Part shown: positions 16,027-53,052 of the stretch, in pieces
Position numbering within the stretch: position 1 is the first letter of the stretch
Layout of the letters: every line of letters starts with the position of its first letter
Source: Bacteroidota bacterium
Lineage (GTDB): Bacteria > Bacteroidota > Bacteroidia > 2-12-FULL-35-15
Assembly (NCBI GenBank): GCA_025963725.1
Contig: JAOQAE010000002.1
Coordinates: 445,221-509,220 of the forward strand
Length of the DNA stretch: 64,000 bases
Reading direction: 5' to 3'
Translations under genes and position numbers: made by a program
Notes under the pieces: generated by a model
The model's database searches: none
The model's input: the letters and a program-made list of their open reading frames with translations, nothing else
Told to the model about the DNA's origin: nothing

Positions 16027-16069
16027 TATTTTTTACTGCCTGCGACTATTCTTTATAATTGTTGTTGTT

Positions 16070-16322
16070 ACACACCCCTTGCCCCTCTCGAGAGGGGAAT
16101 CGACCCTGCAAGCATGTTAAATCAATTTCTATTTTAAAATTCCTGTTCGATTAAAAACTCGCATAAATTCATTTAGAAAAGATACTTCTCCTTTCTATAG
16201 GGGAATTCCGATCCTGCAAACATTTTAAATCAATTTCTATTTTAAAATTTCTGTTCGATTAAGAACTCCTCAAATTCATTTAGCGCGATCCACTCCCTTC
16301 TTGAGAGGGGCCGGGGGTGTGT
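16070..16322. repeat. composite repeat: two tandem units of about 115 bp flanked by inverted GC-rich hairpin motifs (ACACACCCC..GCCCCTCTCGAGAGGGG / CCCTCTTGAGAGGGGCCGGGGGTGTGT)
   Basis: Direct comparison of 16103-16190 with 16218-16283 (about 85% identical); the 16070-16097 terminus is the reverse complement of 16293-16322. Confidence 0.7.
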
Positions 16323-16336
16323 TATAAATACATTCC

Positions 16337-20488: not shown

Positions 20489-20496
20489 TTTTAATT

Positions 20497-21444: not shown

Positions 21445-21453
21445 GTTTGATTT

Positions 21454-31300: not shown

Positions 31301-34158
31301 TCACCGGGAATGTTACGTTACCGGCTGCAGGTACCTATTACCTCGTAGTGGATACCTGGTCGACCCCGCTGAATGCAAATTATGATCTTTCCGTTTCTTC
31401 CTTCGGCTCGGGCCCTGCAAACGACCTGCCCTGCAGCGCCACTCCAATGACGCTTGGCGTTACTGAAACCGGCGACAATACCTGCAGCGGAAGCTCGGGC
31501 GAGCCGGCGGCACCGGCCTGCTGGACAGTTGGAAACAACAATTCCGTATGGTACAGCATAGTGCCTGCAGGTACCACCCTTAAAATAAGGACCAGCCTCG
31601 GAACACTAAGCAATACACAGATCGCCGTGTACAGCGGCACCTGCGGGCCAACGCTGACAATGGTTGCTTCCGCCTGTAACGACAATGGCCCTAACTGCGG
31701 ATCTACCACCGATTATGCCTCCACCTTATCGCTCACCGGCTTAACTGCCGGAAGCACCTATTACATCCGCGTAGACGGCTATACCAACCTTACGGGGACA
31801 TTCGGCATTGTTGCGATCGACGGTGCTTCCAGCTTCCCTCCTGTTGCGGGGCAGGATTGCAGCCTCGGAAATCCTGTATGTAATTCCACCATGTCGGTGA
31901 GCAATCCCGGCTACCAGGGCATCGGCTCCACCTGCGATATTCCTTCCAGCTACTGCCTCTTATCGGCTGAACGAGGATCGGCATGGTATACCTGGACCAC
32001 CAATGCGGCGGGTAACATTAACTTTGATATTGTGCCGAACGACTGGCCGGGATCACCAAGCACTACCAGCACCGATTATGACTTTGCATTATGGAAAGTA
32101 TCCGGCGGGGTTTCCTGCGCCACCATCCTTGCAGGAACATCTACGCCTGTAGCATGTAACTACAGCGGGCTTGGCGTAACCGGCCTCAGCCCTACCGGCA
32201 ATTCACCCGCTGCATACCCGGGCTTCAACGCCTCCTACGAGCCGCAGGTAGCCTGCGCGAGCGGCGACACCTGGATATTGCTGATCAACAACCACAGCAC
32301 CAGCACACAGGGCTTTACGATCAACTTTGCCACAGGCGCGGGCGGAGCACCTATCAACTATACACCTTCGCCTACTTCCATTACGTGGTCGGGCGGAACA
32401 AACACTGCCTGGAACCTTGCCAGCAACTGGGGCGGATGCGCCGTTCCTGTATGCGGCATCGATGCGGTTGTAAATCCTTTCACCACGCAGCCAAACATTA
32501 CTGCCGCAATGGGCGCGCAATACGTGAAGAACCTTACGATCAACCTGGGCGCCACCCTAACGCTGGGCGCGGGAAGCATCCTGCACATCTGCGGAAACCT
32601 GCTGAACAACGGGACCATTATCGCTTCTCCTACCTCCACGATCATTTTCGACAATGCAGCTTCGGCGCAGACCATGACGGGTAACTTTACAGGCACAAGC
32701 ACACTCGGAAACCTTACCGTTACTAAAACAGGCAGCTCGCTGTTCACGTCCGACGATGTGAGCATGAGCGGCAGCTTTACAACGTCGAACAGCACCAGCA
32801 CATTCGACAGCAATGGCAAATACATCAAGGTGGCAGGGAACTTCGTGAATGCAGCAGGAAACACCACCTTCAGCAATACCGGCACAACCGGAACGCTGGA
32901 ATTTAACGGTACTTCCGCCCAAACCTTTACGCAGGGAAGCAGCCAGCTCGACCTGAACAACGTGCTCATGAACCATACCAGCACGGGGGTTACCCTGCTT
33001 ACCGATATGAACATCAAGGCAAGCACCGGAACGCTCACGCTGACACTTGGCAAGATCACAACGGGCGCATTCAAAGTAGTGGTGAGCAACGCTTCCACCA
33101 CCTGTGTAACTGCCGGGAATACGAGCAGCTATGTGAACGGATTTCTGAGAAGGTATATCAATAACTCCACCGGCTCATTCGATTTCCCTGTGGGAACATC
33201 GAGCGCTTACCAGCGTGCGAATGTGAATTTCACGACCGCACCTACCATCACATACCTTACTGCCGATTTCCAGGTGTACGGAACCGTTCCGGGCCCTCTC
33301 GGCTCCAGCGAATGCGGATCGACGTACAACATGAATGCGCTGGACAACGGCTTCTGGAACATTGATGCAAACACTCCTAACAACAATACCGGCGTGTACA
33401 ACATGACCCTGTACAACCGCTCCTACACCAATGCGGCAAGCGGCTGGACGGTGATGGCACGCCATAACGGAAGCGCCACATGGGACATTGTGAACGGCGA
33501 CGGAAGCATGGGAACCTGCGTTGCAGGCGCTGTGACCGCAGTTGTACGAAACAACATGAAAGGCTTCTCGAGGTTTGGAACAGCGCAGTCGGACAATCCG
33601 CTGCCGATCGAGCTGATCTCGTTCACGGGCAAAAATGAAGGCGCAAAGAATAAGCTGGAATGGACTACTGCTTCAGAAGTGAACAATGATTATTTCTCGC
33701 TCGAGCATTCGGCCGACGGCAGCTCGTTTGAAACATTTGTTACGAAGGAAGGCGCAGGCAACAGCTCCGTAAGGATCAACTACGATGCCTATGACTATTC
33801 GCCATACAACGGCACCACGTATTACAGGCTGAAGCAAACGGATTACAACGGAAAATACAGCTACTCCTCCATCATTTCGATCGAGAACAAGCTTGACATG
33901 GTGGCTGTGAGCAATGTGCATCCGAACCCTACCACGGACGACCTGAACTTTGATTTCTATTCGCCGGTGAAGGGCACCGTAAGGATCATGATCATGGATT
34001 ATACGGGCAGGATAGTGGCTGATAAGGTGCAGACGGTTGAAGAAGGAAAATCGAGCCTCAACACACAGATGGGCGAGCTTGCAAAAGGCGTGTATGCCCT
34101 GAAGGTTGAATTCAGCGAAGGCGGATTTAAATCGATCACGAAAGTGGTAAAATATTAA
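28390..34158 (+). CDS. giant T9SS-secreted surface protein (1922 aa): signal peptide, three FN3-like+CUB-like modules, PPC-like beta-sandwich domains, beta-helix-like region, T9SS type A C-terminal sorting domain
   Basis: C-terminal Por/T9SS CTD (NVHPNPTTDDLNFDFY...GVYALKV); three copies of about 220 aa repeated (LNWTAP...YYWK...CPSVAGQ...LTFRFVSDGS). Confidence 0.8.
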   Translation: MKKSLLFLSLITSAFASDAQTTLIGAANNGNFENATPGTNWTIVNPGTNSLWFCGTTSKCAGTNGAYIGTAVGNNNYNTGTNRIAHIYRDVTFPAGETQITLTFDWKGQGESTYDGLKVFIGSASATPVANTAFTTTDATASQIGSTWYNLQAACGSASITITAAQAGNSAAASTRRIVFSWQNDNLSGTTPAATFDNVVLTSAIPPAPNCATYTSPANGATGICNTSASLNWTAPATGGTPTGYLLYFGTDAAATNIVNGTNIGNVLTYNPGALTASTTYYWKIVPTNGGGSASGCTIYSFTTNAGCYPQATASYTACGGTYYDSNISGNYASSENSTITFCPSVAGQKVSVLFSAFNTEATYDILTVYNGPSTASPVLASLSGTTVPSCAYTSTDAGGCLTFRFVSDGSFNYSGWTAAISCVASAPVPNCSAITSPSAGATGICSTSASLNWSAPTGCGIPTGYLLYFGTDAAATNIVNGTNIGNVLTYNPGALSSSTTYYWKIVPTSSAGSASGCAINSFTTSAGCFTQQTGSFSSCSGSYYDSSPTGNYGNSENSTITFCPSTAGQKVQVLFNTFNTESGFDILTVYDGPTTASPVLATLSGSSVPSCPYISTNAGGCLTFRFVSDGSATYSGWDASISCVASAPLPGCATLTAPVDGLTGVCNTSMSLNWTAPSGCGVVTGYLLYFGTDPAATNIINGTNIGNVLTYNPGILSASTTYYWRAVPVNSVGSATGCPIYSFTTSAGCYTQQTGTFSACGGNYYDSNPTGNYANNENSTITFCPSVAGQFVQVNFSSFVTESGLDILTVYNGPTTASPVLGTLSGNIIPCTYTSTDAGGCLTFRFVSDGSTRYAGWNALISCVSTPPGPLAGSTCANALSITLPYSATSQTTACYGNDYTNASTGSCATLYESGEDHVYAYTASGAECIGITLSNTSTNSIGYQVYSGCPGSAGASCIGSAGGATSSTLTGNVTLPAAGTYYLVVDTWSTPLNANYDLSVSSFGSGPANDLPCSATPMTLGVTETGDNTCSGSSGEPAAPACWTVGNNNSVWYSIVPAGTTLKIRTSLGTLSNTQIAVYSGTCGPTLTMVASACNDNGPNCGSTTDYASTLSLTGLTAGSTYYIRVDGYTNLTGTFGIVAIDGASSFPPVAGQDCSLGNPVCNSTMSVSNPGYQGIGSTCDIPSSYCLLSAERGSAWYTWTTNAAGNINFDIVPNDWPGSPSTTSTDYDFALWKVSGGVSCATILAGTSTPVACNYSGLGVTGLSPTGNSPAAYPGFNASYEPQVACASGDTWILLINNHSTSTQGFTINFATGAGGAPINYTPSPTSITWSGGTNTAWNLASNWGGCAVPVCGIDAVVNPFTTQPNITAAMGAQYVKNLTINLGATLTLGAGSILHICGNLLNNGTIIASPTSTIIFDNAASAQTMTGNFTGTSTLGNLTVTKTGSSLFTSDDVSMSGSFTTSNSTSTFDSNGKYIKVAGNFVNAAGNTTFSNTGTTGTLEFNGTSAQTFTQGSSQLDLNNVLMNHTSTGVTLLTDMNIKASTGTLTLTLGKITTGAFKVVVSNASTTCVTAGNTSSYVNGFLRRYINNSTGSFDFPVGTSSAYQRANVNFTTAPTITYLTADFQVYGTVPGPLGSSECGSTYNMNALDNGFWNIDANTPNNNTGVYNMTLYNRSYTNAASGWTVMARHNGSATWDIVNGDGSMGTCVAGAVTAVVRNNMKGFSRFGTAQSDNPLPIELISFTGKNEGAKNKLEWTTASEVNNDYFSLEHSADGSSFETFVTKEGAGNSSVRINYDAYDYSPYNGTTYYRLKQTDYNGKYSYSSIISIENKLDMVAVSNVHPNPTTDDLNFDFYSPVKGTVRIMIMDYTGRIVADKVQTVEEGKSSLNTQMGELAKGVYALKVEFSEGGFKSITKVVKY
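28999..30985 (+). repeat. three tandem direct repeats of about 660 bp inside the adhesin gene (FN3+CUB-like modules)
   Basis: Long identical nucleotide runs (e.g. ggaacggatgcggcggctaccaacattgtgaacggcaccaacatcgggaatgtgcttacctacaaccccggagcactt) recur at about 29100, 29790 and 30460. Confidence 0.8.
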
Positions 34159-34173
34159 GAGCAGATCAATGGC

Positions 34174-34208
34174 AGGGGCTTCACTGAATGTGAAGCCTCT
34201 TTGCTTTT
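34174..34208 (+). terminator. rho-independent terminator of the adhesin gene
   Basis: aggggcttcac-tgaat-gtgaagcctct followed by ttgctttt. Confidence 0.65.
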
Positions 34209-34306
34209 AAACGGTTCCGAAAACTAAGTTTCCGCCTTCTTTTGAATGGAGCATTTTGAAAATAAATCTTTACATTCGTAACGTTTTTACAAAACACCCT
34301 AAAAAA

Positions 34307-35362
34307 ATGCTGATCAAAAGGTGCCTTGTGTTTCTGATTTGTATTTCCGCCGGCAGCTCCTGCTTTGCGCAATTGAATGCAAGCGCAGGGAATGATAAAG
34401 TGATCTGCCCCGGATTCGGCATTGTGATCGGCGGCTCGCCTACCGCATCGGGAGGCCTCGCGCCATACACCTATTCCTGGCAGCCGACCACCGGATTAAG
34501 CGCAACCAATACATCAAATCCTACAGCCACTCCAGGTTCCAACATCAGCTATACTGTTACCGTTACCGATGATACCGGGGCGGTAAGGACGGATGTAGCC
34601 ACTGTTTTCATCAATGACATTACCTACATCACCGCCGGAAGGGATACAAGCATCTGCGTGAACAGCTTTGCAGGCATCGGTTCGGGCGGAAATAATTATC
34701 CGGGCATCACTTATTCATGGTCACCGGGAAGCACGCTCGACGATTCCACCAGCGGGGCGCCGGTATCATCACCGGGCTTATCGAGCGTTACGTATACATT
34801 AACGGCAACAACGGCTGGGTGTCCGCCGAAAACCGACCAGGTGACAGTTACCGTGATCCCGACACCTCCTATTAATGCAGGCCCGGACACAGTCATACAG
34901 GAAGGCGCCGTAGCCATCCTCCACGGTTCGGGAGGTGCAGCATACGCCTGGGGAAACACCCCGGAGATCATGTACATTTATTCTTCCAGCTGCGATGTGG
35001 AGCCGGTGGTAACCACCACGTATTACCTTTACGGAACCGATCCCACGGGGAAATGCCCGGGCTACGACAATGTTACCGTATTTGTTGAAGCGAATGATGA
35101 AGTAGTGATCTATAATACATTTACGCCGAACAACGACGGCAACAACGATACCTGGTACATCGGTAATATTCAGAAGTACCCCGACAATCAACTGGAAGTA
35201 TACAACCGCTACGGCAAGCTGGTTTATAAAACGAGCGGCTATGCGAATACCTGGGACGGACGGGTTTCGGGGGATGAGCTTCCGGCAGGGACTTATTTTT
35301 ATGACCTTAATCTCGCGCCGGGGCTTCCAAAGCATCACGGCACACTCACCATACTCAGGTAA
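34307..35362 (+). CDS. T9SS type B C-terminal domain (gliding-motility-associated CTD) protein, SprB-like small cargo
   Basis: C-terminal FTPNNDGNNDTWYI...YNRYGKLVY...WDGR motif; Ig-like repeats; signal peptide from Met at 34307 (the ORF starts at 34256). Confidence 0.75.
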   Translation: MLIKRCLVFLICISAGSSCFAQLNASAGNDKVICPGFGIVIGGSPTASGGLAPYTYSWQPTTGLSATNTSNPTATPGSNISYTVTVTDDTGAVRTDVATVFINDITYITAGRDTSICVNSFAGIGSGGNNYPGITYSWSPGSTLDDSTSGAPVSSPGLSSVTYTLTATTAGCPPKTDQVTVTVIPTPPINAGPDTVIQEGAVAILHGSGGAAYAWGNTPEIMYIYSSSCDVEPVVTTTYYLYGTDPTGKCPGYDNVTVFVEANDEVVIYNTFTPNNDGNNDTWYIGNIQKYPDNQLEVYNRYGKLVYKTSGYANTWDGRVSGDELPAGTYFYDLNLAPGLPKHHGTLTILR

Positions 35363-35365
35363 GAA

Positions 35366-36325
35366 ATGAAAAAGATACTGGCATGCTGCTATTTGCTTAT
35401 TGTGTTCGCGGGCGCTTCGCCTGCGCAGCAAATGCCATACTATTCACAGTTCCGGAGCAATCTTTACATGATCAACCCGGCGGTTACAGGAACTAAAAAG
35501 CTGGTGGATGCGCGCCTTAATTACCGCGCCCAGTGGATGGGTTATGAAGATGCGCCGCGCACGGCGAACATGAGCCTTCACAGCCGCTTCCTGAAAGGGA
35601 AGATGGGCGCCGGGCTTTACCTGATGCAGGATAAGGTAGGGCCGTTCAAGCAAATGAACCTCGGGCTGAGCTATGCCTATCACATTCGCTTTCCCGATGT
35701 GGAGCTTTCCGCAGGTGTAGCCGGGAATTTTTCAAAACAGACCCTCATCGGCGATAAAATTTACCTTCACAATTCGCAGGACCCTTCCATCAACCAGTAT
35801 GTGACCAACAGCACCTGGGCTTCGGATGCACACGCGGGGATCTACCTGTACAACGACCGCTTTCATGTTGGGCTCAGCGCCCTGCACATGATGGAAACCA
35901 CTGCTGAATTTTACAAGAAGGACACTACAAAAAAGGGATTCCTGAAATATGCCGACCACGTAAATTTTACGCTGGGCTACAATTATTCCCAGAACCCTGA
36001 TTATGTTCTGGAAAGCACCCTGTACGGGATCTACGTTGCGGGCACCCCGTTCAATCTTGATTACACGCTGCGCGTACATTACAAGCAGATGATCTTCGCG
36101 GGATTTTCAGTACGCCTGCGGGATGCGGTAGCATTGCATGTAGGCGCCACGTTCATGGAAGAATACCAGGTGAGCTATTCGTACGACCTGCTGATCGGCA
36201 AGATGAAGAACTACAGCAGCGGCTCGCATGAGATCATGATCGCGTTCAGCAGCAGCATCTTCAAGCAGAAGCGCGGAAGGGCGAACGACAAGTTCCTGCA
36301 CCAGCGCTACGGCTATATGTTCTAA
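35366..36325 (+). CDS. PorP/SprF family T9SS outer-membrane protein
   Basis: N-terminal QQMPYYSQFRSNLYMINPAVTG resembles PorP/SprF; beta-barrel-like alternation; 4-bp gap after the type-B cargo gene. Confidence 0.7.
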   Translation: MKKILACCYLLIVFAGASPAQQMPYYSQFRSNLYMINPAVTGTKKLVDARLNYRAQWMGYEDAPRTANMSLHSRFLKGKMGAGLYLMQDKVGPFKQMNLGLSYAYHIRFPDVELSAGVAGNFSKQTLIGDKIYLHNSQDPSINQYVTNSTWASDAHAGIYLYNDRFHVGLSALHMMETTAEFYKKDTTKKGFLKYADHVNFTLGYNYSQNPDYVLESTLYGIYVAGTPFNLDYTLRVHYKQMIFAGFSVRLRDAVALHVGATFMEEYQVSYSYDLLIGKMKNYSSGSHEIMIAFSSSIFKQKRGRANDKFLHQRYGYMF

Positions 36326-38400: not shown

Positions 38401-38892
38401 ATGGCTTCATTCGATATTGTAAACAAAGTAGATGCGCAATTGCTGGACAATGCCATCAATGTGGCGCGCAAGGAGATCCTGAACAGGTTTGACTTTCACG
38501 GCTCCAAAAGCGAGATCAATTATGACAAGAAAAACCTGAGCCTGCAGATCCTCACGGAAAATGAGATGCGGCTGGAGGCGATCACCGATGCGATCCGCTC
38601 GAGGATGATCAAGCAGCACCTGAACCCGCTTTGCCTCGATATGGGCAAGGAAACCGCAGCATCGGGAAATATGATCCGGAAAGAGATAAAAGTGCGTGAA
38701 GGGATCGACAAGGAGGTTGCGAAGAAGATCGTGAAGGATATAAAAGATTCAAAGCTGAAGGTACAGGCTTCCATCATGGAGGACCAGGTACGGGTTACAG
38801 CCAAAAAGATCGACGACCTGCAGGCGGTGATCTCACTCATGAGACAAGGCAGCTATGACCTGCCGCTGCAGTTCGTGAATATGAAGAGCTGA
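38401..38892 (+). CDS. yajQ: YajQ family cyclic-di-GMP-binding protein (UPF0234)
   Basis: MASFDIVNKVD...RFDFHGSKSEI N-terminal signature; 163 aa. Confidence 0.8.
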   Translation: MASFDIVNKVDAQLLDNAINVARKEILNRFDFHGSKSEINYDKKNLSLQILTENEMRLEAITDAIRSRMIKQHLNPLCLDMGKETAASGNMIRKEIKVREGIDKEVAKKIVKDIKDSKLKVQASIMEDQVRVTAKKIDDLQAVISLMRQGSYDLPLQFVNMKS

Positions 38893-38898
38893 GCGGTA

Positions 38899-39300
38899 TT
38901 ACTGGCACTGGGCGCCTGCAGAAAGCCAGTAAGGCGGAAGATCCGACTTGCCTGTGACATTCGCTTTCAATACATTGTTGATCCAGATCTTACAGGTATA
39001 CACATGCGAAGTATCATGATCAAACAGAAAAATATTTACATCCGAATTCACATCCCCGCAAAAGTTTGTGCTGTCGGTAAGTGTAAGTGAGGGAGAAATG
39101 AAATTGTGAATATAATCTATCATGTTAATATTAAGATGCACCGAATCGGGGACGGTGGTGCCCGACACCTCGTATTTTACATTCCAGCATCCCTGCGGCC
39201 ATCCAGGGGTTCCCGTACTTGTCCCTGTTTTTAACACAGGATCTTTTTTGCAGGCTGAAAACAGAACAAAAGTAAAAAGCACTATCCCGATTTGTTTCAT
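38899..39300 (-). CDS. hypothetical lipoprotein (133 aa)
   Basis: Lipoprotein signal MKQIGIVLFTFVLFSAC; last gene of the membrane operon. Confidence 0.5.
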   Translation of the reverse strand: MKQIGIVLFTFVLFSACKKDPVLKTGTSTGTPGWPQGCWNVKYEVSGTTVPDSVHLNINMIDYIHNFISPSLTLTDSTNFCGDVNSDVNIFLFDHDTSHVYTCKIWINNVLKANVTGKSDLPPYWLSAGAQCQ

Positions 39301-39321
39301 GACTGAATTTTTTTTTAATTG

Positions 39322-40428
39322 TTATTGTCCAGGCTCTCTCTTCGCGCTCAATAATTTTCTATCCTCAGCTGAGAGATACTGTCTCGCGATCCTGTTCTCC
39401 GGCCTGCGATCGAAGGTGTAAAGCACCAGCAGAAAAAACCACTCCAGGGGCTTCATTAATACGTAAACAGCATCCGCAACCAGCTTGTTATTAAATAAGA
39501 CGTAGTGACGGTGTACAAGGTTGCCTACCTTGTTATAATTATGCCGGACCACTTTATGAATCTTCGGGATCTTCTGCTCCATCAGCTCCTCGAATGCATT
39601 GGAAACAAGCAGCTGCCTGTTGCAGATGATCTTCCCTCCACCCCTTTCACCGTAACGTTCGGGCTTTACAAATCCTTTATGGCCGTTGGCAGCAACCGAG
39701 CATAAGAAATGTCCGCCGCATTCCACGTTATCGCACATATAATCCAGCTGTGAAAATCCATGCTTGTAGGTATCTGTAAATGCCCGAACAATGGAATCGG
39801 GCTTTTGTCCGAACAGCAGCAGCACAGCTGTAACAATCACCATTAACGGCAGGCAGAGCACCAGCAGTACCGGCACCTTCAGGAAAGGATGGAGCTTTAA
39901 CAATTTCCAGGCGAGCCTTACGATCATGCCGCCGGAAGCAGGATCCATATCCCTGCTGTAGAGCATAAACTGCCTGTGATTCTCAACAAGCCGGATGGTA
40001 AAAAGGAAAATAATGGGCATGTTCCATACCGTGGCAACAGGAAATCCCACTTGGTAACAGATCAGAGCGTTGAGCGGAAGAGCGATCAGCAGGAAGCAAT
40101 TGCAGAGCACTTCGAGCACAGGGCTGCCTACACTTTTCTTAAAGCCGGAATAAAAGTAAAAGACCACACACAGGAAGATGAGCACATAAATAGTGAGGCG
40201 GTGCTCTGGCGAAAACACTGCGCTTTCGCTGCAGCAGTCGTTGCTGGCTTCATCGAGAAAGAGCAGGCAGAGAGAAGGATAAACAATAACGGCAGCAAAA
40301 TCCAGGAAGGCCTGCATTTTTTTGTTGTAAAACCTTTTTCCTTTAAAGAGAAAGTATATAAAGTCAATTGTGATCATAAGGCCGGGGATCCAAAAGCAGC
40401 TGGTGATCAGCCAAATGGTTATTTCCAT
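39322..40428 (-). CDS. hypothetical membrane protein with C-terminal soluble Cys/His-rich domain
   Basis: Five or six TM helices, then CDNVECGGHFLCSVAANGH and a C-terminal domain; family unknown. Confidence 0.5.
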   Translation of the reverse strand: MEITIWLITSCFWIPGLMITIDFIYFLFKGKRFYNKKMQAFLDFAAVIVYPSLCLLFLDEASNDCCSESAVFSPEHRLTIYVLIFLCVVFYFYSGFKKSVGSPVLEVLCNCFLLIALPLNALICYQVGFPVATVWNMPIIFLFTIRLVENHRQFMLYSRDMDPASGGMIVRLAWKLLKLHPFLKVPVLLVLCLPLMVIVTAVLLLFGQKPDSIVRAFTDTYKHGFSQLDYMCDNVECGGHFLCSVAANGHKGFVKPERYGERGGGKIICNRQLLVSNAFEELMEQKIPKIHKVVRHNYNKVGNLVHRHYVLFNNKLVADAVYVLMKPLEWFFLLVLYTFDRRPENRIARQYLSAEDRKLLSAKREPGQ

Positions 40429-40430
40429 TA

Positions 40431-40799
40431 TCAGAAAAATTTGGGATAAAAAATAAAAATGCCGATCAGCGCGGCGCCTGCAGCGGCAATAAGCACAGCG
40501 GCAGCGGAAACATCCTTCACCTTTTTAACCTGCGGATGAATATTGGGTGAAACAATATCCGAGAGAAATTCGATAGCCGTATTGAACATCTCCGCCATGA
40601 ACACCAGCACGATCGCGGAAACGATCCAGCACCATTCGCCCGAAGAAAGCCCGGTGTACCAGCCCAGGCAAAGCGCAGTCAGCGCGGCGGTCAAATGCAG
40701 CCAGGCATTGTGCTGTGTTGAAAAGAAGGTACGGAGCCCTTCGAGCGCGAAGCCAAAGCTCTTTATGCGTTCTGCGATGCTAAATCTTTTTTTGTCCAT
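40431..40799 (-). CDS. dgkA: diacylglycerol kinase family protein (DgkA/undecaprenol kinase)
   Basis: 122 aa, three TM; DgkA signature around EMFNTAIE and a GxS-rich C-terminal helix. Confidence 0.75.
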   Translation of the reverse strand: MDKKRFSIAERIKSFGFALEGLRTFFSTQHNAWLHLTAALTALCLGWYTGLSSGEWCWIVSAIVLVFMAEMFNTAIEFLSDIVSPNIHPQVKKVKDVSAAAVLIAAAGAALIGIFIFYPKFF

Positions 40800-41448
40800 G
40801 GCTTTCTGTATTAAAATTCCTGATAAGCGCAGCTAATGTACAATATGCCGCTATTAAAAATAAGGAAAAGAAAAACGTTACGCCAACCATCCTTGTATTT
40901 TGAGTGGGATGCAGCAGCATATTGAAAATATCGGCGAACAGCGCGACCGGATTGCTGATGATGTCCCAGCTGTTCCAGCGGGGATAGCGGCCCAGGTAGA
41001 TCCCGAAGCTGCAGAGGATCATGAGGAAAACGGTAAATGCGTTTACGATCACGGAATTTAAATAAGAGCTAAGAAAACGCCTGACCTCGAAGAGCGACGC
41101 AAAGCCCAGCAGCAGTCCATTCCAGGCGAATGACAGGATCAGCACGAGGTCGAACCACAGCGGGATGCCTTCCTTTGCACGCAGATGGAACAGGTCGGTG
41201 ACGATGTACGGCGAGTTGGGAAAGAACAGCAGCCAGCCTCCGAACAGCAGCAGCATTAAGTATTTCGGCCTCTTGTTCTCCTTCGCTTCTGCGAGAAGCA
41301 CGGAGCAGAGAAATGGGATCCATGCAAGAAAGAGGTTCCATACAAGGAACACGTAGAAGAGATGTCCGCTCCATTGCATGCGCAGGATCAGTAAAAGAAT
41401 ACATAAGGCAGAGGAGATTGCCATTGTTTTAACGAGGCGGTTTATCAT
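40780..41448 (-). CDS. DUF1361-like polytopic membrane protein
   Basis: Six TM; PNSPYIVTDLFHL motif recalled from DUF1361; overlaps dgkA by 20 nt. Confidence 0.45.
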   Translation of the reverse strand: MINRLVKTMAISSALCILLLILRMQWSGHLFYVFLVWNLFLAWIPFLCSVLLAEAKENKRPKYLMLLLFGGWLLFFPNSPYIVTDLFHLRAKEGIPLWFDLVLILSFAWNGLLLGFASLFEVRRFLSSYLNSVIVNAFTVFLMILCSFGIYLGRYPRWNSWDIISNPVALFADIFNMLLHPTQNTRMVGVTFFFSLFLIAAYCTLAALIRNFNTESHGQKKI

Positions 41449-41458
41449 ATTTGCTTTT

Positions 41459-42172
41459 TTATTTTTGTTTTTTATACCTTCTGTAAATTGAAAAGACGGA
41501 GATGAGGATCAGGCCCTGCCCGGCCCAGAACAAGCCCCAGTTGAAGTGGACCGGCACATACTGCCGCACTTCATCGAACATGTTCTTGTTGCTCGATAAG
41601 GTCCATACGCCAATATCGTCGCCATAATTGGAAACATAAATGATGTAATCCCACATGAAGGAAACAATGGCGGTGATGCTTCCGAAGATCAGTAAAAGCC
41701 ATTCGTGAAAGCTGATGAACACCTTCTTTCCCTGCTCCTGGAAGTACACCACCACGAACGTAAGGAGGATCATGGAAAGGGAAACGAGGCATGGCGCTAT
41801 CACCGGGCCAACCCAGGGCACGGGGATCAAAAAGAGAATATCCCATGTGAAAAGTGATTCCGGCCAGCAGAGCAGCACTTTCAGGAACACATAATAAAAG
41901 AGATCCCAGATGGCGAAGGAATACAAAAAGAAAACGAAGCGCTGCAACGGATTTTTTCCGCACATCACTCCTGCTCCTATCAGCATGATGATGGTGGCCG
42001 CTTCGCGCCAGAACTCGGTAACGGCAATATCGCGGGTAACGGGAATGAGCGGGAATTTAAATCCGCCGGGATAGTACAGCTTGCGCAGGTAAACAACCAC
42101 GGAGGTTTCGAGGTAGCCCATAGCGATGCTGAAGATAGTGAGCCAGAGAATTGTTTTGAGGATCGGTTTCAT
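41459..42172 (-). CDS. hypothetical polytopic membrane protein (237 aa)
   Basis: Seven or eight hydrophobic segments; no recognised motif. Confidence 0.5.
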   Translation of the reverse strand: MKPILKTILWLTIFSIAMGYLETSVVVYLRKLYYPGGFKFPLIPVTRDIAVTEFWREAATIIMLIGAGVMCGKNPLQRFVFFLYSFAIWDLFYYVFLKVLLCWPESLFTWDILFLIPVPWVGPVIAPCLVSLSMILLTFVVVYFQEQGKKVFISFHEWLLLIFGSITAIVSFMWDYIIYVSNYGDDIGVWTLSSNKNMFDEVRQYVPVHFNWGLFWAGQGLILISVFSIYRRYKKQK

Positions 42173-42179
42173 AAGCAGT

Positions 42180-44120
42180 TTAGTTAAGTACGTTGCCTTC
42201 TATTTTGACCTGCGGATAAGTATCGCGAAGCAGGTTAAGCCCTTTTTGAGTGATCAGTCCGATTTTCAAATGCCTGAGCTTTTTAAGATCCGAAATAACG
42301 GCAAAGCTCCTGATCCTGTTGTTGCCTTCCATGTTAAGCTCTTCAAGGTTAGGAAGCTTGCGCAGGGAGAAAATATTTACGAGGTCGTTATTGGAAATAT
42401 CGAGGCTTCGCAATTCTTCCATTGCCGGTAAGCGGGTGATGTCCCTGGCCGAGCCATTGATCAACACAAGGCTTCTTAGTTTTGGAAAATAGTGCAGCTC
42501 ATAACAATCGGCGAAAGCAGCACCATTCAGCTCCAGCGAATCGAGGTTGGAAAGATCACGGAGGCTGAGCCCTGAAAAATCCGTTCCTAAGAATTTAAGG
42601 CTCTTTACCTTGTGCTGCTCATTCATTTCAAGGAGCTTCCGGTATGTTTCAGAATCCGAAATATTCATGGAACGCCAGTCTTTGTTATGCATTCTATCCA
42701 TAAAGCCTGACAGCTTCGACGATAATTCTGCCTGGAAATCACGTTCGTCATACAGCGTTCCACCGCTTATATTGCGGTAATTATAATCAGTATCATTCAT
42801 TGTTTCATGCTTTATGGAATCGTCCAAAGACAGCAATTGCGGGAGATTAACATCGGAGAGCGACAGCAGGTAAAATTTATCAAGCGCCTTATCCCTGCTC
42901 AGCGACCTGTTGATATTGAAATTGGTAACCAGCAGATCCCAGTTCACGAAACAGCTGATCACCAGCAGGCCGTAGAACAGCCAGCTGTTTGAACGGAAAA
43001 GGAACCAGTTCGTTTTTGAGCGCATGATCTTCACAAAGGTTGTAACAAGCCCGATGAGCGCCAGCAGCAGCCACACGTACACGCCGATGCGCTTATAGGT
43101 AAGGCTGTATTCATTCACATACAGGCTGTTGCGGAACGCTGTGGAGATGATCATAAAAGCGTTCTGGATGATCCAGGCATACGCAAGCATCTTGATGGTT
43201 TTATTTTTCTCATAAAAATTCACCCTTCCGCGGAAGTAAAACATGATGATGAGAATGGCAATGATGATGGACAGGATCAGCAGGCCTGTGCCCTGGTGCA
43301 CAAAAACAGAATAGCTCATGCCTTTGGGAAGCGTACCATCGCCCCAGAGATAATTCAGGTCGAGCATATTCACCAGCAACAGCAGTCCGTTCAGCAATAT
43401 CAGCAGAATAACGCCGGAGCGCACTTCGTTCTCGATCCCGAGATTGCGCGCAAACCAGGAATCGGTGCGGAGCATGCCCGGGGAAAGGTCATTCGGGATC
43501 GACCTGTCTTTTGCGGCCATTGCCGGAATGGTTTTGTGGTACATGAATCCGTACATGAGGAAGGTTCCTCCAAGCGTAAAGAAGACCCAGCCTGCGGAAA
43601 TAAAATCGAGGTTGATGTTCTTGGTGAATTCGTCGAACAGCGGATTGGAGCCTTTGTATAAAAAGAAAAACACCAGCACAACAGTGAACGGCACAATATA
43701 GATCATGAAGCGTAGAAAAGAAGAATTGCCGGAAGCCGCAGCCACTCTTTTTCCCGCGCGCTCCACGGCATCGAGGATCATGAACACAAAAGATGCGCAG
43801 GTGGAATAAGCGGAGAAGAAAAGTGAAGTGATCACCGAAGTTCCCGGCCCCACGCTGAATGCCGACAGAAGCATTAAGGAGATAATGTTTGCCGTGAGCG
43901 ACAAGCCATTGCCGATGTAGAATACGCAGAATGACGATGCAAGGGCACCTGCCGCTGCAATGAGCCAGGGCTTGTTCCTTTGGAGTGTCCTGTCTTTCAG
44001 CAGCAGCAGGAAAACCAGCAACGCGGAGAAAATAAGGAAATTGATCCCTGTTCCCTGCCTGTAAAATAAAAAGCTGTATGCGAATACCGATGACAGCAAG
44101 ATCCAATCATTCTTTTTCAT
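42180..44120 (-). CDS. polytopic membrane protein with C-terminal leucine-rich-repeat domain
   Basis: About 480-aa multi-TM N-terminal region, then LRR units (LxxLxxLxLxxN, e.g. LRSLDISNNDLVNIFSLRKLPNLEELNMEGN); Met at 44120 overlaps the upstream stop (ATGA). Confidence 0.6.
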   Translation of the reverse strand: MKKNDWILLSSVFAYSFLFYRQGTGINFLIFSALLVFLLLLKDRTLQRNKPWLIAAAGALASSFCVFYIGNGLSLTANIISLMLLSAFSVGPGTSVITSLFFSAYSTCASFVFMILDAVERAGKRVAAASGNSSFLRFMIYIVPFTVVLVFFFLYKGSNPLFDEFTKNINLDFISAGWVFFTLGGTFLMYGFMYHKTIPAMAAKDRSIPNDLSPGMLRTDSWFARNLGIENEVRSGVILLILLNGLLLLVNMLDLNYLWGDGTLPKGMSYSVFVHQGTGLLILSIIIAILIIMFYFRGRVNFYEKNKTIKMLAYAWIIQNAFMIISTAFRNSLYVNEYSLTYKRIGVYVWLLLALIGLVTTFVKIMRSKTNWFLFRSNSWLFYGLLVISCFVNWDLLVTNFNINRSLSRDKALDKFYLLSLSDVNLPQLLSLDDSIKHETMNDTDYNYRNISGGTLYDERDFQAELSSKLSGFMDRMHNKDWRSMNISDSETYRKLLEMNEQHKVKSLKFLGTDFSGLSLRDLSNLDSLELNGAAFADCYELHYFPKLRSLVLINGSARDITRLPAMEELRSLDISNNDLVNIFSLRKLPNLEELNMEGNNRIRSFAVISDLKKLRHLKIGLITQKGLNLLRDTYPQVKIEGNVLN

Positions 44121-44620
44121 AGTGATGATGTATTTAAGTTTAAGAGTTCCAATTGTTTGATATGCCTGTAGCAGAAATACAGCGGGAAGAAGCCAATGAC
44201 GCCGAAAGAGCAATCGATCAGCTGCCAGTAAACGGGAATGTGGCGGATAGGGCCGGCGATCATAGCCAATGGAAAGATCATTACACAGGCGATCATCCCG
44301 AACTGGATGCACCAGATGTTCCTTACGGGATCACGGAGCGGGCCGATGAACACGACCGCGATCACAAGATGCGCAAAGGCCAGCCAGTCGGTGCCATACG
44401 ATAAATACGGATAAGTGTAATTGGTGCTCCGCACGGAAAGATAAATGGTCTGCAGCCAGTTCTGGATCACATGCGGCAATGCCGAAGAGTGAGCGGTAAG
44501 GAATGCCAGCTCCGCTTCGATGGGGAAAGCAGTGATGCCGCTGAGAATGAGAAATACAATGAAGAGGATGATCCAGTTGCGGATCCGCCTTTTAAGCTGT
44601 TGTTCGCTGAGGGTTTTCAT
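44117..44620 (-). CDS. hypothetical membrane protein (167 aa)
   Basis: Four TM segments; translationally coupled to the downstream gene. Confidence 0.5.
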   Translation of the reverse strand: MKTLSEQQLKRRIRNWIILFIVFLILSGITAFPIEAELAFLTAHSSALPHVIQNWLQTIYLSVRSTNYTYPYLSYGTDWLAFAHLVIAVVFIGPLRDPVRNIWCIQFGMIACVMIFPLAMIAGPIRHIPVYWQLIDCSFGVIGFFPLYFCYRHIKQLELLNLNTSSL

Positions 44621-44632
44621 ATACTTTATTTT

Positions 44633-45121
44633 TTATAATGTTTGTTTTGCAATGCAATAGGCTTCCCGGAGCCATGCTGTGTTATGCAGCACCGCGCTGC
44701 TGTAATCCATCTCTGCAAATTCCCCCGATCTTTTTCCTTTCCTGAACGCGTTGTAAAAATCTTTCCAGTGATCGGGCATGAGGAAAATGCAAAGCACTAC
44801 CGTCATGAACACGGGAAATGTATAATGGCGGTTGCCGAGGAACCAGAACTGCATGCAGGCTTCGCCCTGTTCATCCATTTCGTAGCCGAGCAGGATGTGC
44901 TTGCAGTCGTGCCGCACATAGCCAGGAGCCAGCCGGAAGCCCTTCTTCTGAAGATAGTTTGCGAGCTCGTTGCCAAGCGTATGCTCCGGCAGTGCAAGCA
45001 GCTGTTCCATGGTGTATGGAAAGGGCCGGCTGTGCCTTACGCGAAGCATTAAAGGCAATGCTATTTTGTGCGTGAGCAGCTCCAGCAATTGTGATCTTTT
45101 ATTTTTCAGTATGCTGATCAT
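44633..45121 (-). CDS. Coq4-like protein (HDxxH-x11-E zinc-binding motif)
   Basis: HDCKHILLGYEMDEQGE fits the COQ4 family HDxxHx11E signature exactly; about 160 aa. Confidence 0.5.
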   Translation of the reverse strand: MISILKNKRSQLLELLTHKIALPLMLRVRHSRPFPYTMEQLLALPEHTLGNELANYLQKKGFRLAPGYVRHDCKHILLGYEMDEQGEACMQFWFLGNRHYTFPVFMTVVLCIFLMPDHWKDFYNAFRKGKRSGEFAEMDYSSAVLHNTAWLREAYCIAKQTL

Positions 45122-45852
45122 AGGTCGAATGATGAATAAGGCTTTGAAAAAATAAATCCGGAAGATTCCCTGAAAGCTTTGATGATGCTGTCGGCATCCT
45201 GTCCAAGGCTGTATAACAAAGCAACCTGCAGCGCAACTGCGATCGCAAGCAGCGCGGAATAAACCGCGAGCCTTGGCAGCAGGGGCAGCTGGACCACCTG
45301 TAATGGCAAAGGAATAAAGCCGAGCTCTTCGCGGTATGGAAGCAGCTCAGCCGGAACAGCGGCCGTTTGATTGTAGAAATAAAATTCGCGGAGCAGCAGG
45401 AAAAAAGCGACCAGCGGGCAAAGCAGCTCGAAGCCTTGAAAAGGAAAAACGATCCCAAGCACGAAGTAGTTCAGGAAATGAATGCTGCAGGCAAAGCAGA
45501 GGATGATGCCCTGCAGCATGCCTACGGAGAAAAGAATGCGCAAAAAAGGATTGCGTGTTCCGGAAGTTAAGCGGGCGCACCAGAAGGAAGCAGATGAAAC
45601 CATCACGAGCAGGATAATGCTGATCACATGGCGCTTTGAGAATGGCATGTCAAACCCGTACGCATCGAAGCGGCAAAACCCGATCGCAGGCGCTATGAGC
45701 GTAAAAACAAAATCGGCGGTGAGCATGGAAGCCTGGCCGTACCCGCTTAACTGATTATCGTTCCTCTTCATTGTACGGATGGCTGTGACGATCACATACA
45801 GGATGTACAAAATGTAAGGGATGCCGAGAAGGAGCAAAAAAAAGAAGATCAT
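45118..45852 (-). CDS. hypothetical polytopic membrane protein (244 aa), first gene of the operon
   Basis: Six or seven TM; 4-nt overlap with the Coq4-like gene. Confidence 0.5.
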   Translation of the reverse strand: MIFFFLLLLGIPYILYILYVIVTAIRTMKRNDNQLSGYGQASMLTADFVFTLIAPAIGFCRFDAYGFDMPFSKRHVISIILLVMVSSASFWCARLTSGTRNPFLRILFSVGMLQGIILCFACSIHFLNYFVLGIVFPFQGFELLCPLVAFFLLLREFYFYNQTAAVPAELLPYREELGFIPLPLQVVQLPLLPRLAVYSALLAIAVALQVALLYSLGQDADSIIKAFRESSGFIFSKPYSSFDL

Positions 45853-45921
45853 ATTTTTATTTTTTTAATTAAAAGTACTTTGTGTTTCAAAGTTAAAGCA
45901 CAAAAAAAAGGTGCATCATCA

Positions 45922-46221
45922 TTAATCCCTTTGCTTCAGCAGCTTCTCTAATGCATCCAGGTGCTCGTTGAATGCCTTCTTCCCTGCCTTTGTTACCGAG
46001 TATGTTGTGTTCGGCTTTTTGCCGATGAACTGTTTCTGCACTTCAATGTATTCCAGCTTCTCCAGAGCGGAAATATGCGAAGCGAGATTACCATCGGTAA
46101 TGTCGAGCATTTCCTTCATGGAGCTGAATTCCACCTTGTCGTTCACCATGAGGATGCTCATGATGCCCAACCGGATGCGGTTTTCAAATGCCTTGTTTAA
46201 ATGTTGAATATAATTTTTCAA
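45922..46221 (-). CDS. winged-helix transcriptional regulator (HTH_34/ArsR-like)
   Basis: 99 aa; pattern ...LGIMSILMVNDKVEFSSMKEMLDITDGNLASHISALEKLEYIE... typical of small wHTH regulators. Confidence 0.55.
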   Translation of the reverse strand: MKNYIQHLNKAFENRIRLGIMSILMVNDKVEFSSMKEMLDITDGNLASHISALEKLEYIEVQKQFIGKKPNTTYSVTKAGKKAFNEHLDALEKLLKQRD

Positions 46222-46356
46222 GCTGCTAATTACGAATCTATACGAATTTACGAATTGTACTAATTATCATTCTCACTGGATGTCATCCTGAGCGAAGCGA
46301 ATGGATCTTTCCAAACAACCTCCCCGAACTCCTAACGTCTCCCTCCTATCTAACAG

Positions 46357-47001
46357 CTACCCTCTCTCATATTTAAAATACATCACTGCGCCATATATAA
46401 TGTGCAGAATACCGAATCCGACTGCCCAGAAATACAGTCCGTAGCCAATGTACAGCGAAGCCGTTAAGCCAAGAATGATCTCGCAGATCCCAAGATAGCG
46501 AATATCATTGAATGTATATTTACTTGCGTTGATCAGCGACAAACCATAAAAGATGAGCGTCGCCGGAGCGACGAGCCCGATATCGCCGTGATACAGCATA
46601 ATAAGGCAGAACAATCCGCCGGTGCCAAGCGGGATCGCGAGGTTGATCAGCAGCCGCTGCCCGGTGCTGTCCCAGATCCTGAGCCCTTTTTTTCTCGAAT
46701 TGCGCATTGTTAAAAGAGTGCCTACCAGCAGGGAAGCGATCAGCACGCCAGCCGCAACAGAGAACAGGTAAATGATCAGCTCGTTCGCTACTTCCACCCT
46801 GCCGTGGATATCCATCTGAAGCATCGAGCGGTAGTTTTCGGTATAAGAGCCGATCTTCACATACGCGAGGTACGCTCCTATCAGTGCAAACACACCGGCA
46901 AAAACACCGGAAAGGCCGCTCAGGGAAATAAAACGGGAAGAGCGCTCCATCATGGAGCGGATGTCGGACAGTGCCTGTAAATGTTCTTTTTGATCTGCCA
47001 T
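46357..47001 (-). CDS. hypothetical membrane protein
   Basis: Five TM; start taken at MADQKEH (the ORF extends to 47064). Confidence 0.45.
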   Translation of the reverse strand: MADQKEHLQALSDIRSMMERSSRFISLSGLSGVFAGVFALIGAYLAYVKIGSYTENYRSMLQMDIHGRVEVANELIIYLFSVAAGVLIASLLVGTLLTMRNSRKKGLRIWDSTGQRLLINLAIPLGTGGLFCLIMLYHGDIGLVAPATLIFYGLSLINASKYTFNDIRYLGICEIILGLTASLYIGYGLYFWAVGFGILHIIYGAVMYFKYERG

Positions 47002-47207
47002 AGTTAAGGAGCTATTAAAAGTACTTTGTAACGCAAAGTAATGGTAAATTATTGTAAGCGCCAAAAGAAAATGAAATTATTTTTATGACTGTCGGAAAAA
47101 CTGCTCTTATTTAAGGATCGCAATGATGTTCAAATTTATCCTTCTGAAACTCAGGGAGGCGCTGTGGGCGATTATTAAATCCGGCAGAAAAACCTTATAC
47201 TTGTGGT

Positions 47208-47993
47208 ATGGTAAACCTGGCCATTTATACCTTTATAACAGTCCACCTGATCGATGTGGTGGACGTGCTATTGGTGGCGCTGCTCATTTACCAGCTTTAC
47301 TACCTGATCAAAGGAACTGCAGCCATCAATATCTTTATCGGCATCCTCCTCTTCTACCTTTTATGGATCCTTGTAAAAGCCCTGAACATGCAGCTTTTCG
47401 GCAGCATCCTCGGGAAGTTCATCGATGTGGGCTTCATTGCCCTGCTCATCGTTTTCCAGCAGGAGCTGCGGCGCTTCCTGCTTTTCATCGGCACTTCCGA
47501 TATTTTCACCAAAGGGAAGATCTTCGATTTCAAATGGAACATGAACCCCACGCATAAAATGGACATCAACGCCATTGTGAAGGCCTGCAAGAACATGAGC
47601 GAAAGCAAAACCGGCGCGATCATTATCATTACCAGGAACAACGAGCTGAAATTCTACGCAAATACGGGAGATGCCATTGAAGCAAAAGTATCGGTGCGGA
47701 TGATCGAAAGCATTTTTTATAAGAACTCCCCGCTGCACGACGGTGCATTGATCATCTCCGGTAACGAGATCGTGGCTGCCCGCTGTGTGCTGCCTGTTAC
47801 CGAGAACAATGAGTTTCCGGCACACCTGGGCATGCGGCACCGGGCTGCGGTAGGGATCACTGAAAATTCGGATGCGATCGCCGTGGTGGTTTCCGAACAA
47901 ACGGGGGAAATTTCCTTTTCCAAAGAAGGAGAGCTGAAGCATGGCGCTACGCCGGAACGCCTGCGCGAAATGCTTGAAAAAGAGTTTGCGTAG
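47208..47993 (+). CDS. cdaA: diadenylate cyclase CdaA (c-di-AMP synthase)
   Basis: N-terminal TM helices; DAC domain motifs (DGALIISGNEIVAARCVLP, RHRAAVGITE, SEQTGEIS). Confidence 0.85.
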   Translation: MVNLAIYTFITVHLIDVVDVLLVALLIYQLYYLIKGTAAINIFIGILLFYLLWILVKALNMQLFGSILGKFIDVGFIALLIVFQQELRRFLLFIGTSDIFTKGKIFDFKWNMNPTHKMDINAIVKACKNMSESKTGAIIIITRNNELKFYANTGDAIEAKVSVRMIESIFYKNSPLHDGALIISGNEIVAARCVLPVTENNEFPAHLGMRHRAAVGITENSDAIAVVVSEQTGEISFSKEGELKHGATPERLREMLEKEFA

Positions 47994-52488: not shown

Positions 52489-53052
52489 ATGGAGGAAGAA
52501 ATAAAAAATGCGCTTGAAGTGCTTCGCAAAGGAGGCACCATCCTCTACCCTACCGATACGGTTTGGGGCATTGGCTGTGATGCGCGGAACAAGGATGCAG
52601 TAGCGAAAGTATTTAAGATCAAGCAGCGGGCCGAATACAAAAGCATGGTCACGCTCGTTTGCGATAACACCATGCTGAACCGCCATGTGAAGGAAGTCCC
52701 GGAAGTGGCCTGGGACCTGATAGAAGCTGCCGACAGGCCCCTCACAATTATTTATCCCGGTGCGCGCATGCTTGCCGAGAACGTGATCGCAGCTGACGGA
52801 AGTGTTGGTATACGGATGGTACAGGATGAGTTTTGCAAAAACCTGATCCATAAGTTCGGGAAGCCCATCGTTTCAACTTCCGCAAATATCAGCGGCGAGG
52901 AAGCGCCTTCCTCCTTCAACGAGATCAAGATCGACATTTTGAATAACGTGGATTACATTGTAAATTTACGCAGGAATGATAACAGCAGCATTCAGCCATC
53001 TACGATCATCAAAGTAGCGATGAACGGGGAATTCAAGATCATCAGGAAGTAG
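52489..53052 (+). CDS. TsaC/YrdC-family L-threonylcarbamoyladenylate synthase paralog (187 aa)
   Basis: ILYPTDTVWGIGCD motif; the second YrdC-fold gene in the window. Confidence 0.7.
   Translation: MEEEIKNALEVLRKGGTILYPTDTVWGIGCDARNKDAVAKVFKIKQRAEYKSMVTLVCDNTMLNRHVKEVPEVAWDLIEAADRPLTIIYPGARMLAENVIAADGSVGIRMVQDEFCKNLIHKFGKPIVSTSANISGEEAPSSFNEIKIDILNNVDYIVNLRRNDNSSIQPSTIIKVAMNGEFKIIRK

Follow-up and report, generated by a model that had tools for sequence, protein, structure and literature searches.

A short-form Coq4-like protein of Bacteroidota encoded in a conserved membrane-protein gene cluster headed by an operator-like palindrome

Why does a bacterium of a phylum that uses menaquinone encode a protein with the metal-binding signature of Coq4, a protein of ubiquinone biosynthesis, and what might such a protein act upon? 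We addressed this question for a 64,000-nucleotide stretch of a Bacteroidota bacterium (assembly GCA_025963725.1, contig JAOQAE010000002.1, positions 445,221 to 509,220 of the forward strand), hereafter called the window, in which one short open reading frame (ORF) carries the motif HDxxH-x11-E (Table 1). An earlier reading of this DNA, made from its letters without database searches (the sequence-only reading), had noted an exact match to the COQ4 zinc-binding motif, placed the gene within a membrane-protein operon of a Bacteroidota genome, and argued that a Coq4 homologue in this setting implies a different aromatic or isoprenoid lipid substrate.

The motif claimed by the sequence-only reading is indeed exact, and it occurs only once in the six-frame translation of the window, as HDCKHILLGYEMDEQGE, with H71, D72, H75 and E87 as the four ligands. 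Since 0.12 matches are already predicted from the amino-acid composition of the window, the match taken alone is only suggestive and is no proof of kinship to Coq4. When the protein by itself was compared with the Pfam model PF05019, it scored 18.8 bits (E=0.001), below the gathering score of 22.9 bits, and no NCBIfam model matched either this protein or its membrane partners. A word-indexed search returned 60 homologues of 120-173 aa, 19 of which carry a precomputed PF05019 match, and some homologues have already been named 'ubiquinone biosynthesis protein Coq4' by the automated annotation of JGI. In an alignment of 29 close homologues (alignment A1), the four motif residues and approximately 25 further positions are invariant, and PF05019 matches 27 of the 29 sequences (E<=0.01). 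When 1.84 billion cluster representatives were searched exhaustively with a profile, 416 relatives were found at E<=1e-3 (299 at E<=1e-10), nearly all of them 150-240 aa in length, and the exact motif is present in 143 of the 150 best cluster representatives, most of the 7 exceptions being shorter and apparently partial. When 109 diverse relatives with 21-43% identity to the query were aligned (alignment A2), H71, D72, H75 and E87 were the only invariant columns, and PF05019 matched 99 of these relatives (E<=0.01), with a best E of 6.4e-13. The profile built from the same 109 sequences matches the cyanobacterial Coq4-like structures 3MSQ (4.5e-13) and 6E12 (Alr8543; 5e-10) with the HDxxH helix aligned; the window protein also shows the helical fold of Coq4 and Alr8543.

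These data indicate that the HDxxH-x11-E motif is no chance match, because its four residues are invariant in the homologue alignments. The homology of the window protein to the Coq4 superfamily can be regarded as secure despite the sub-threshold PF05019 score, since its relatives match PF05019, the family profile matches the solved structures and the four ligands are invariant. The sequence-only reading had named two findings that would speak against the homology, namely the lack of a PF05019 match and a motif unconserved in orthologs, and neither was obtained; the Pfam result is borderline for the single protein and clear at the family level, and the ligands are kept among close and diverse relatives alike. 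That the motif arose by chance in an unrelated small helical protein is a reading to which the expected number of matches per window and the low single-sequence Pfam score lend themselves; profile, fold and conservation all point specifically to Coq4-like structures, and this reading is already refuted, with practically no probability left to it.

The window protein is a short member of this superfamily. It has 162 aa, and its sub-family spans approximately 155-175 aa, as compared to 210-265 aa for full-length Coq4, whose architecture with N-terminal helices is absent from the window protein. In the alignment to the 3MSQ chain (224 aa), positions 27-158 of the profile correspond to residues 62-218, and residues 102-124 fall opposite a gap. 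Cluster look-ups gave few named members of the sub-family, all of them Bacteroidota and none a cultured isolate; these were assigned to Bacteroidia, to Saprospiraceae/Lewinellaceae, or to metagenome-assembled genomes (MAGs) labelled Chitinophaga, Arcticibacter or Flavobacteriales. We class the protein within the Coq4 superfamily, as a short-form variant, and not as a Coq4 of ubiquinone biosynthesis, and the short form appears so far to be a distinct sub-family restricted to Bacteroidota. The presence of type IX secretion genes (CHU_C, PorP/SprF and Por_Secre_tail) in the window, together with relatives that come exclusively from Bacteroidota, agrees with the phylum proposed by the sequence-only reading. 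In addition, JWO09_465, a protein of a 'Bacteroidetes bacterium' MAG, has the same sequence (100% identity) as one window protein, the membrane protein here designated TM235.

A separate sub-clade of the family, with members of approximately 236 aa (P0081, P0091, P0108, P0120, P0130 and P0203; loci L041, L045, L046, L050, L068, L134 and L145), is extended at the C terminus, and the extension includes two conserved transmembrane helices (…GMLFCLPFLFSS..ADLVGAGFPFVGGAIL…). The genes of this anchored sub-clade lie in other contexts, without TM235 or the regulator HTH_34 described below. The C-terminal helix pair suggests that the family works at the membrane. An origin of the two-helix anchor by fusion of a downstream small membrane protein was considered and rejected, as no hidden Markov model match was obtained.

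In the window, at least eight genes on the same strand overlap or are separated by very short gaps, and the Coq4-like gene is the second of them. The stop codon of the preceding DUF6688N gene and the start codon of the Coq4-like gene overlap as ATGA, and the same ATGA overlap joins the genes of the membrane protein TM167 and of DUF4153; the Coq4-like and TM167 genes are 12 nt apart, and at the remaining junctions the genes are separated by 7, 10 and 2 nt or, in one case, overlap by 20 nt. According to transmembrane prediction, all products of the operon are polytopic except the Coq4-like protein, so that the membrane-protein operon of the sequence-only reading was borne out. A Pfam scan of the window, covering every gene-sized ORF except a 1922-aa ORF and a few short ones, detected no member of the UbiA, UbiG, UbiE, UbiD, UbiX, UbiH, coq, men or mqn families in these 64 kb.

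Conservation of this arrangement was followed in two sets of loci. The first set, obtained by scanning one genome per species, comprises 33 loci, all from Bacteroidota MAGs, and in essentially all 33 the order found by tblastn with the window proteins was TM235, HTH_34, (DUF6688N), Coq4-like, TM167, DUF4153, (TM237), DUF1361 and DgkA. This order persists even where the Coq4-like proteins share only 28-38% identity and the synteny further out (ruvX, def and cdaA) is broken. The second set was obtained by scanning metagenomes with a degenerate DNA pattern and comprises 120 loci, of which 93 belong to the true family and 27 are chance or non-family matches; since the pattern itself demands the motif, these loci serve for context only and never as evidence of motif conservation. 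Among the metagenome loci with enough flanking DNA, TM235/HTH_34 lie upstream on the same strand in 31 of 47, and DUF1361, DUF4153, DgkA, TM167 or TM237 lie downstream in 27 of 62. By clustering the unassigned neighbours, we found a CreD gene (PF06123, 7e-144) adjoining in 27 metagenome loci (for example, L107 2086-3930), and CreD is the commonest gene downstream of the Coq4-like gene outside the lineage of the window. A small membrane protein of approximately 100 aa is encoded in 18 loci, often between the Coq4-like gene and CreD. The usual order is TM235, HTH_34, Coq4-like, (small membrane protein), CreD and/or DUF4153, DUF1361 and DgkA, and it is also seen on two long JGI contigs with independently called genes. 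Overall, the recurrent neighbours in 126 related loci are TM235, HTH_34, CreD, DUF1361, DUF4153 and DgkA; in most of the related loci, HTH_34 immediately precedes the Coq4-like gene, and no quinone gene (ubi/coq/men) recurs beside the Coq4-like gene in these 126 loci. Loci L028-L032 carry two Coq4-like paralogues, both motif-bearing, on either side of TM167 (for example, L029 10007-10471 and 11048-11551), and this pair may form a hetero-oligomer with the TM167 membrane protein. Some Coq4-like genes of high GC content, probably not from Bacteroidota, sit in different contexts.

The window holds a winged-helix regulator, HTH_34, and the same palindrome was found before the operon of this regulator and before the operon of the Coq4-like gene. 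An identical 16-mer, ACAAAGTACTTTTAAT, lies in the intergenic regions heading both transcription units and contains the palindrome ACTTTG-N5-CAAAGT, which has only these two matches in the 64 kb even when one mismatch is allowed. Across 153 related loci (1.24 Mb), 131 exact copies of the palindrome were counted as compared to 0.07 expected, all of them at operon heads, and the conserved sequence extends as ACTTTG-N5-CAAAGT(ACTTT). Exact copies are located 6-30 nt upstream of TM235 (38 copies), the Coq4-like gene (37) and DUF6688N (18), so that the Coq4-like gene or DUF6688N follows the palindrome in 55 related loci. If one mismatch is tolerated, a site is found before 39 of 57 TM235 genes, 45 of 114 Coq4-like genes and all 19 of the 19 DUF6688N genes. 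The 267 internal genes examined (HTH_34, DUF1361, DUF4153, DgkA, TM237 and TM167) are preceded by nothing closer to the palindrome than three mismatches. An RNA hairpin was considered as another reading of the palindrome and judged less likely, as the variants are one-sided or uncompensated and the sequence, not only the pairing, is conserved. A protein-binding DNA operator is more likely, because the variants are one-sided and the sequence is conserved across distant lineages, and HTH_34, encoded next to it, probably uses the palindrome as its operator. Its left half-site (TtACTTTG) resembles TAnnTTTG, the −7 promoter element of Bacteroidota, and this likeness would fit repression by promoter occlusion. 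A scan for sigma-70 promoters and terminators, which does not model Bacteroidota promoters, gave nothing above shuffled background, and an Rfam scan of 38800-47400 gave no match.

In order to relate these observations to a possible function, what has been reported for other Coq4 proteins has to be considered. Eukaryotic COQ4 binds approximately two Zn, and a metal-site mutant loses function and keeps its partners; furthermore, COQ4 replaces UbiD and UbiH in E. coli (PMC10680789). Reconstructed COQ4 decarboxylates prenylated hydroxybenzoate in vitro in a Zn-dependent manner, and this activity is absent from the double mutants of the motif, H/H and D/E (PMC7615680). In Alr8543, the Asp and Glu of the motif hold two Mg2+ beside a hydrophobic cleft; this cleft contains a lipid, for which the original model of geranylgeranyl monophosphate has since been replaced by oleic acid (PMC9774615).

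We propose that the short-form protein of approximately 160 aa, which is predicted to be soluble or peripheral and helical and which keeps the HDxxH-x11-E metal site, would be a divalent-metal-dependent enzyme at the cytoplasmic face of the inner membrane, and that it would act on an anionic head group, a carboxylate or phosphate, carried by a lipid or isoprenoid that is embedded in the membrane and is no ubiquinone precursor. Of two transcription units, both headed by ACTTTG-N5-CAAAGT, the second would express its gene, and a dimeric HTH_34, encoded between both sites, would bind the palindrome and repress its own operon as well as the Coq4-like operon. The protein would work alongside the co-transcribed DUF6688, TM167, DUF4153, TM237, DUF1361 and DgkA proteins, and alongside CreD elsewhere, all of them together making up a putative envelope or lipid-homeostasis regulon of Bacteroidota. 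An enzyme is proposed because the metal residues of COQ4 and Alr8543 are kept, a lipid kinase is co-encoded and some relatives are membrane-anchored. We think that a metal-dependent enzyme acting on an anionic membrane-lipid or isoprenoid head group, within an HTH_34-controlled envelope or lipid-homeostasis regulon, stands an even chance of being correct. The reaction could be a decarboxylation as in COQ4 or a hydrolysis as in binuclear metallohydrolases; as a speculation, undecaprenyl phosphate species would be attractive substrates because of DgkA, and the amino-acid lipids of Bacteroidota because of their carboxylates.

A substrate other than a ubiquinone-type one is likely, and to this extent, with no quinone genes nearby, the aromatic or isoprenoid lipid envisaged by the sequence-only reading still stands as a suggestion; that it is implied by the locus was not established. 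A wider version of the proposal holds that the Coq4 fold was recruited as the lead effector enzyme of an undescribed phylum-wide envelope regulon (TM235, HTH_34 and ACTTTG-N5-CAAAGT), in which it would act on a non-quinone lipid, for example undecaprenyl phosphate/pyrophosphate or an acyl-amino-acid lipid, together with DgkA, DUF1361, DUF4153 and CreD. This version is tentative, and on balance we doubt that it holds in full; if true, it would provide the first route to function for bacterial Coq4 homologues and for several membrane-protein DUFs.

Among the other explanations is a genuine quinone enzyme. The protein would then be a Coq4-type decarboxylase of a prenylated aromatic acid, serving menaquinone or an undescribed benzo- or naphthoquinone, and this explanation would suit a protein that retains the fold and motif of COQ4, a Zn-dependent prenyl-hydroxybenzoate decarboxylase that needs exactly these four residues. 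However, no prenyltransferase, methyltransferase, hydroxylase or men/mqn/ubi gene was found in the scanned window ORFs or recurring at the 126 loci, the recurring partners being a regulator and envelope-type membrane proteins. Moreover, menaquinone is general in Bacteroidota, whereas the named members of the family come from some lineages of the phylum only, and such a subset distribution argues against a core quinone step. We consider a quinone enzyme rather improbable. A role in metal homeostasis, in which an ArsR/SmtB-like regulator would control a Zn-binding protein and membrane transporters, draws on the weak match of HTH_34 to ArsR/SmtB models (NF033788, E 3.6e-4) and on the approximately two Zn bound per COQ4 protein. 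The regulator, however, contains no cysteine, and reading its sequence, with no formal test, revealed no metal-site motif of the ArsR/SmtB type; no membrane partner matches a transporter family in Pfam or NCBIfam, and the presence of DgkA and CreD speaks instead for roles in lipids and the envelope, making such a module very improbable.

The protein might also be no enzyme at all, and instead bind lipid or metal as an adaptor or sensor, holding the membrane proteins together as a scaffold or passing a signal to TM235/HTH_34. Yeast Coq4 was long thought to scaffold the coenzyme Q (CoQ) synthome. The Coq4-like gene is the one most often found directly after the regulator, the paralogue pairs flanking TM167 in some lineages suggest hetero-oligomers, and the solved homologues hold lipids without demonstrated activity, all of which would be consistent with an adaptor. 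On the other hand, the sole invariant residues are the four metal ligands that COQ4 catalysis requires, and the Coq4-like unit has an operator of its own, like a regulated target, and is not co-transcribed with the regulator. An adaptor is thus unlikely in our estimate.

The reading that we prefer, a metal-dependent lipid enzyme under the control of HTH_34, also has several observations weighing against it. The PF05019 score of the single sequence lies under the gathering threshold and is borderline. Compared to the solved Coq4-like structures, the window protein is without approximately 35 N-terminal residues and a loop of approximately 16 residues before the HDxxH helix, and because these parts are missing, the lipid tunnel of the short form may be unlike that of the solved structures. 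The synteny of loci L001-L027 is partly a matter of close relatedness, as ruvX, def and cdaA are conserved there too, and at 12 evaluable loci, about a quarter, none of the listed neighbours is present. Relatives of TM235 and HTH_34 far outnumber the Coq4-like family, and because TM235 has many more relatives, the Coq4-like gene is a frequent but optional cargo of the regulon. Finally, the related loci were collected via the Coq4-like gene itself, so that the link between the palindrome and this gene comes from a non-independent sample.

Comparison with known systems places the locus further. With eukaryotic COQ4 (human COQ4 and yeast Coq4p; PF05019), the window protein shares the motif with four invariant ligands, the helical fold as judged via the bacterial structures, and, by prediction, a membrane-peripheral position with membrane-bound partners. 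In contrast to eukaryotic COQ4, it is approximately 100 residues shorter and without a targeting sequence, its gene has no CoQ-synthome or ubi partners nearby, and its host phylum uses menaquinone. The closest solved relatives are Alr8543 (6E12, formerly 3KB4) and Npun02000094 (3MSQ), with identities of 16-18%; they likewise come from bacteria without ubiquinone, and their function is likewise unassigned. A Coq4 homologue in a menaquinone organism is not unprecedented, and the surprise expressed by the sequence-only reading is smaller than it implied, as these cyanobacterial proteins precede it and automated pipelines already label Bacteroidota proteins as Coq4. The bacterial ubiquinone C1 decarboxylase UbiD/UbiX performs the same reaction as eukaryotic COQ4 with an unrelated fold and cofactor (prenylated flavin mononucleotide) and shows no homology.

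With respect to the regulon, the CreD neighbours in other Bacteroidota suggest an envelope-maintenance theme shared with the CreD/CreBC envelope-integrity regulon of Proteobacteria. In the window, however, there is no CreD among the scanned ORFs and no CreBC-type pair beside the cluster, and control here is apparently exerted by the one-component HTH_34 with a palindromic operator and not by a two-component system. The arrangement is like that of the autoregulated PadR/MarR/ArsR repressor modules, which also have a winged-helix gene of approximately 100 aa beside a membrane-protein gene and one palindrome before both the operon of the regulator itself and the target operon. The literature searched contained no characterised member of the HTH_34 family and nothing functional on DUF4153, DUF1361 or HTH_34/PF13601; in a search pairing Coq4 with Bacteroidota, no top-ranked paper mentioned Coq4.

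The label Coq4 on these genes already exists in automated annotation. What appear to be new are the short-form sub-family, its conserved place as the lead gene of a two-unit membrane-protein cluster, and the operator-like palindrome. COQ4 was recognised as a decarboxylase only in 2024. The locus sets a short Coq4 variant in a well-defined, widely conserved setting unrelated to ubiquinone, which yields testable hypotheses on the lipid substrate, on a defined operator with its regulator and on the membrane partners, and it makes the function of bacterial Coq4 homologues more accessible to study. It also carries a warning, as a metabolic reconstruction that takes the label 'ubiquinone biosynthesis protein Coq4' at face value could wrongly credit the organism with making ubiquinone.

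The features of the cluster are collected in Table 1. TM235 is the constant partner of HTH_34 and has at least 7996 related clusters. For TM167, a profile search of the PDB gave no solved relative. The invariant polar residues of DUF1361 lie in or beside membrane helices, and its gene often adjoins DgkA; its AlphaFold2 model (predicted local distance difference test score 86) had no specific fold match in the PDB, and the profile found no solved relative, such that the protein looks like an uncharacterised integral-membrane enzyme.

Table 1. Positions of the Coq4-like gene, its motif, the palindrome copies and the neighbouring genes in the window.
Feature	Positions	Strand	Remarks
Coq4-like ORF, short form	44633..45121	-	ATG to stop, 162 aa, without predicted transmembrane segment
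HDxxH-x11-E motif	44861..44911	-	peptide HDCKHILLGYEMDEQGE; ligands H71, D72, H75, E87
Palindrome copy ACTTTGTGTTTCAAAGT	45877..45893	.	24 nt before DUF6688N ATG (DUF6688N/Coq4-like operon)
Palindrome copy ACTTTGTAACGCAAAGT	47023..47039	.	21 nt before TM235 ATG
TM235 membrane protein, 214 aa from ATG 47001	46357..47001	-	no Pfam family; ~5 transmembrane segments
HTH_34 winged-helix regulator, 99 aa	45922..46221	-	PF13601 2.1e-31; nearest structure PH1061 (1UB9) 2e-10
DUF6688N polytopic membrane protein, operon gene 1	45118..45852	-	PF20394 8.6e-11; upstream of Coq4-like in 18 related genome loci
TM167 membrane protein	44117..44620	-	no Pfam family; invariant motifs YGTDWLAFAH, PIRHIP, DCSFG
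DUF4153 polytopic protein with C-terminal leucine-rich repeats	42180..44120	-	PF13687 2e-44, LRR_4 1.6e-9; likely start ATG 44120
TM237 membrane protein, no known family	41459..42172	-	position conserved in 24 genome loci
DUF1361 membrane protein	40780..41448	-	PF07099 2.5e-48; invariant polar WN, PNxxYxxTDxxH, GRxxRxNSWD
DgkA-type lipid kinase (diacylglycerol/undecaprenol kinase family)	40431..40799	-	PF01219 6.4e-32; E. coli DgkA structures 1.2e-7
Second DUF6688 protein, N and C domains	39322..40428	-	PF20394 2.4e-19, PF23543 1.8e-44; last clearly linked cluster gene

The operon is bracketed by two DUF6688 paralogues, the upstream one consisting of the N-terminal membrane domain only and the downstream one adding a cysteine-rich DUF6688_C domain; the second of these was found in the closest relative, L001, only. 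The spacer between TM235 and HTH_34 is unusually long (135 nt) and contains at 46226-46267 a tandem repeat of approximately four copies of TACGAATTA; in most related loci, the two genes are almost contiguous. A cdaA gene (diadenylate cyclase; DAC and CdaA_N domains) at 47208-47993 is divergent from TM235, an arrangement kept in many related genomes.

Several further features were noted elsewhere in the window. In the region 28390-36325, the 1922-aa ORF comes before genes for a protein with the type IX secretion signal CHU_C and for PorP/SprF, and this group is probably a type IX secretion cargo cluster. Three consecutive genes for FKBP-type peptidyl-prolyl isomerases lie on the minus strand at 19289-22341, the first of them with three FKBP domains. 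A BshC homologue (bacillithiol biosynthesis) is encoded at 5240-6796, and two separate genes of the Sua5/YciO/YrdC family at 18-695 and 52489-53052. At 14536-19022, a gene for an MBOAT membrane O-acyltransferase adjoins two genes for GDSL-like lipases/acylhydrolases, resembling a set for polysaccharide or envelope O-acylation.

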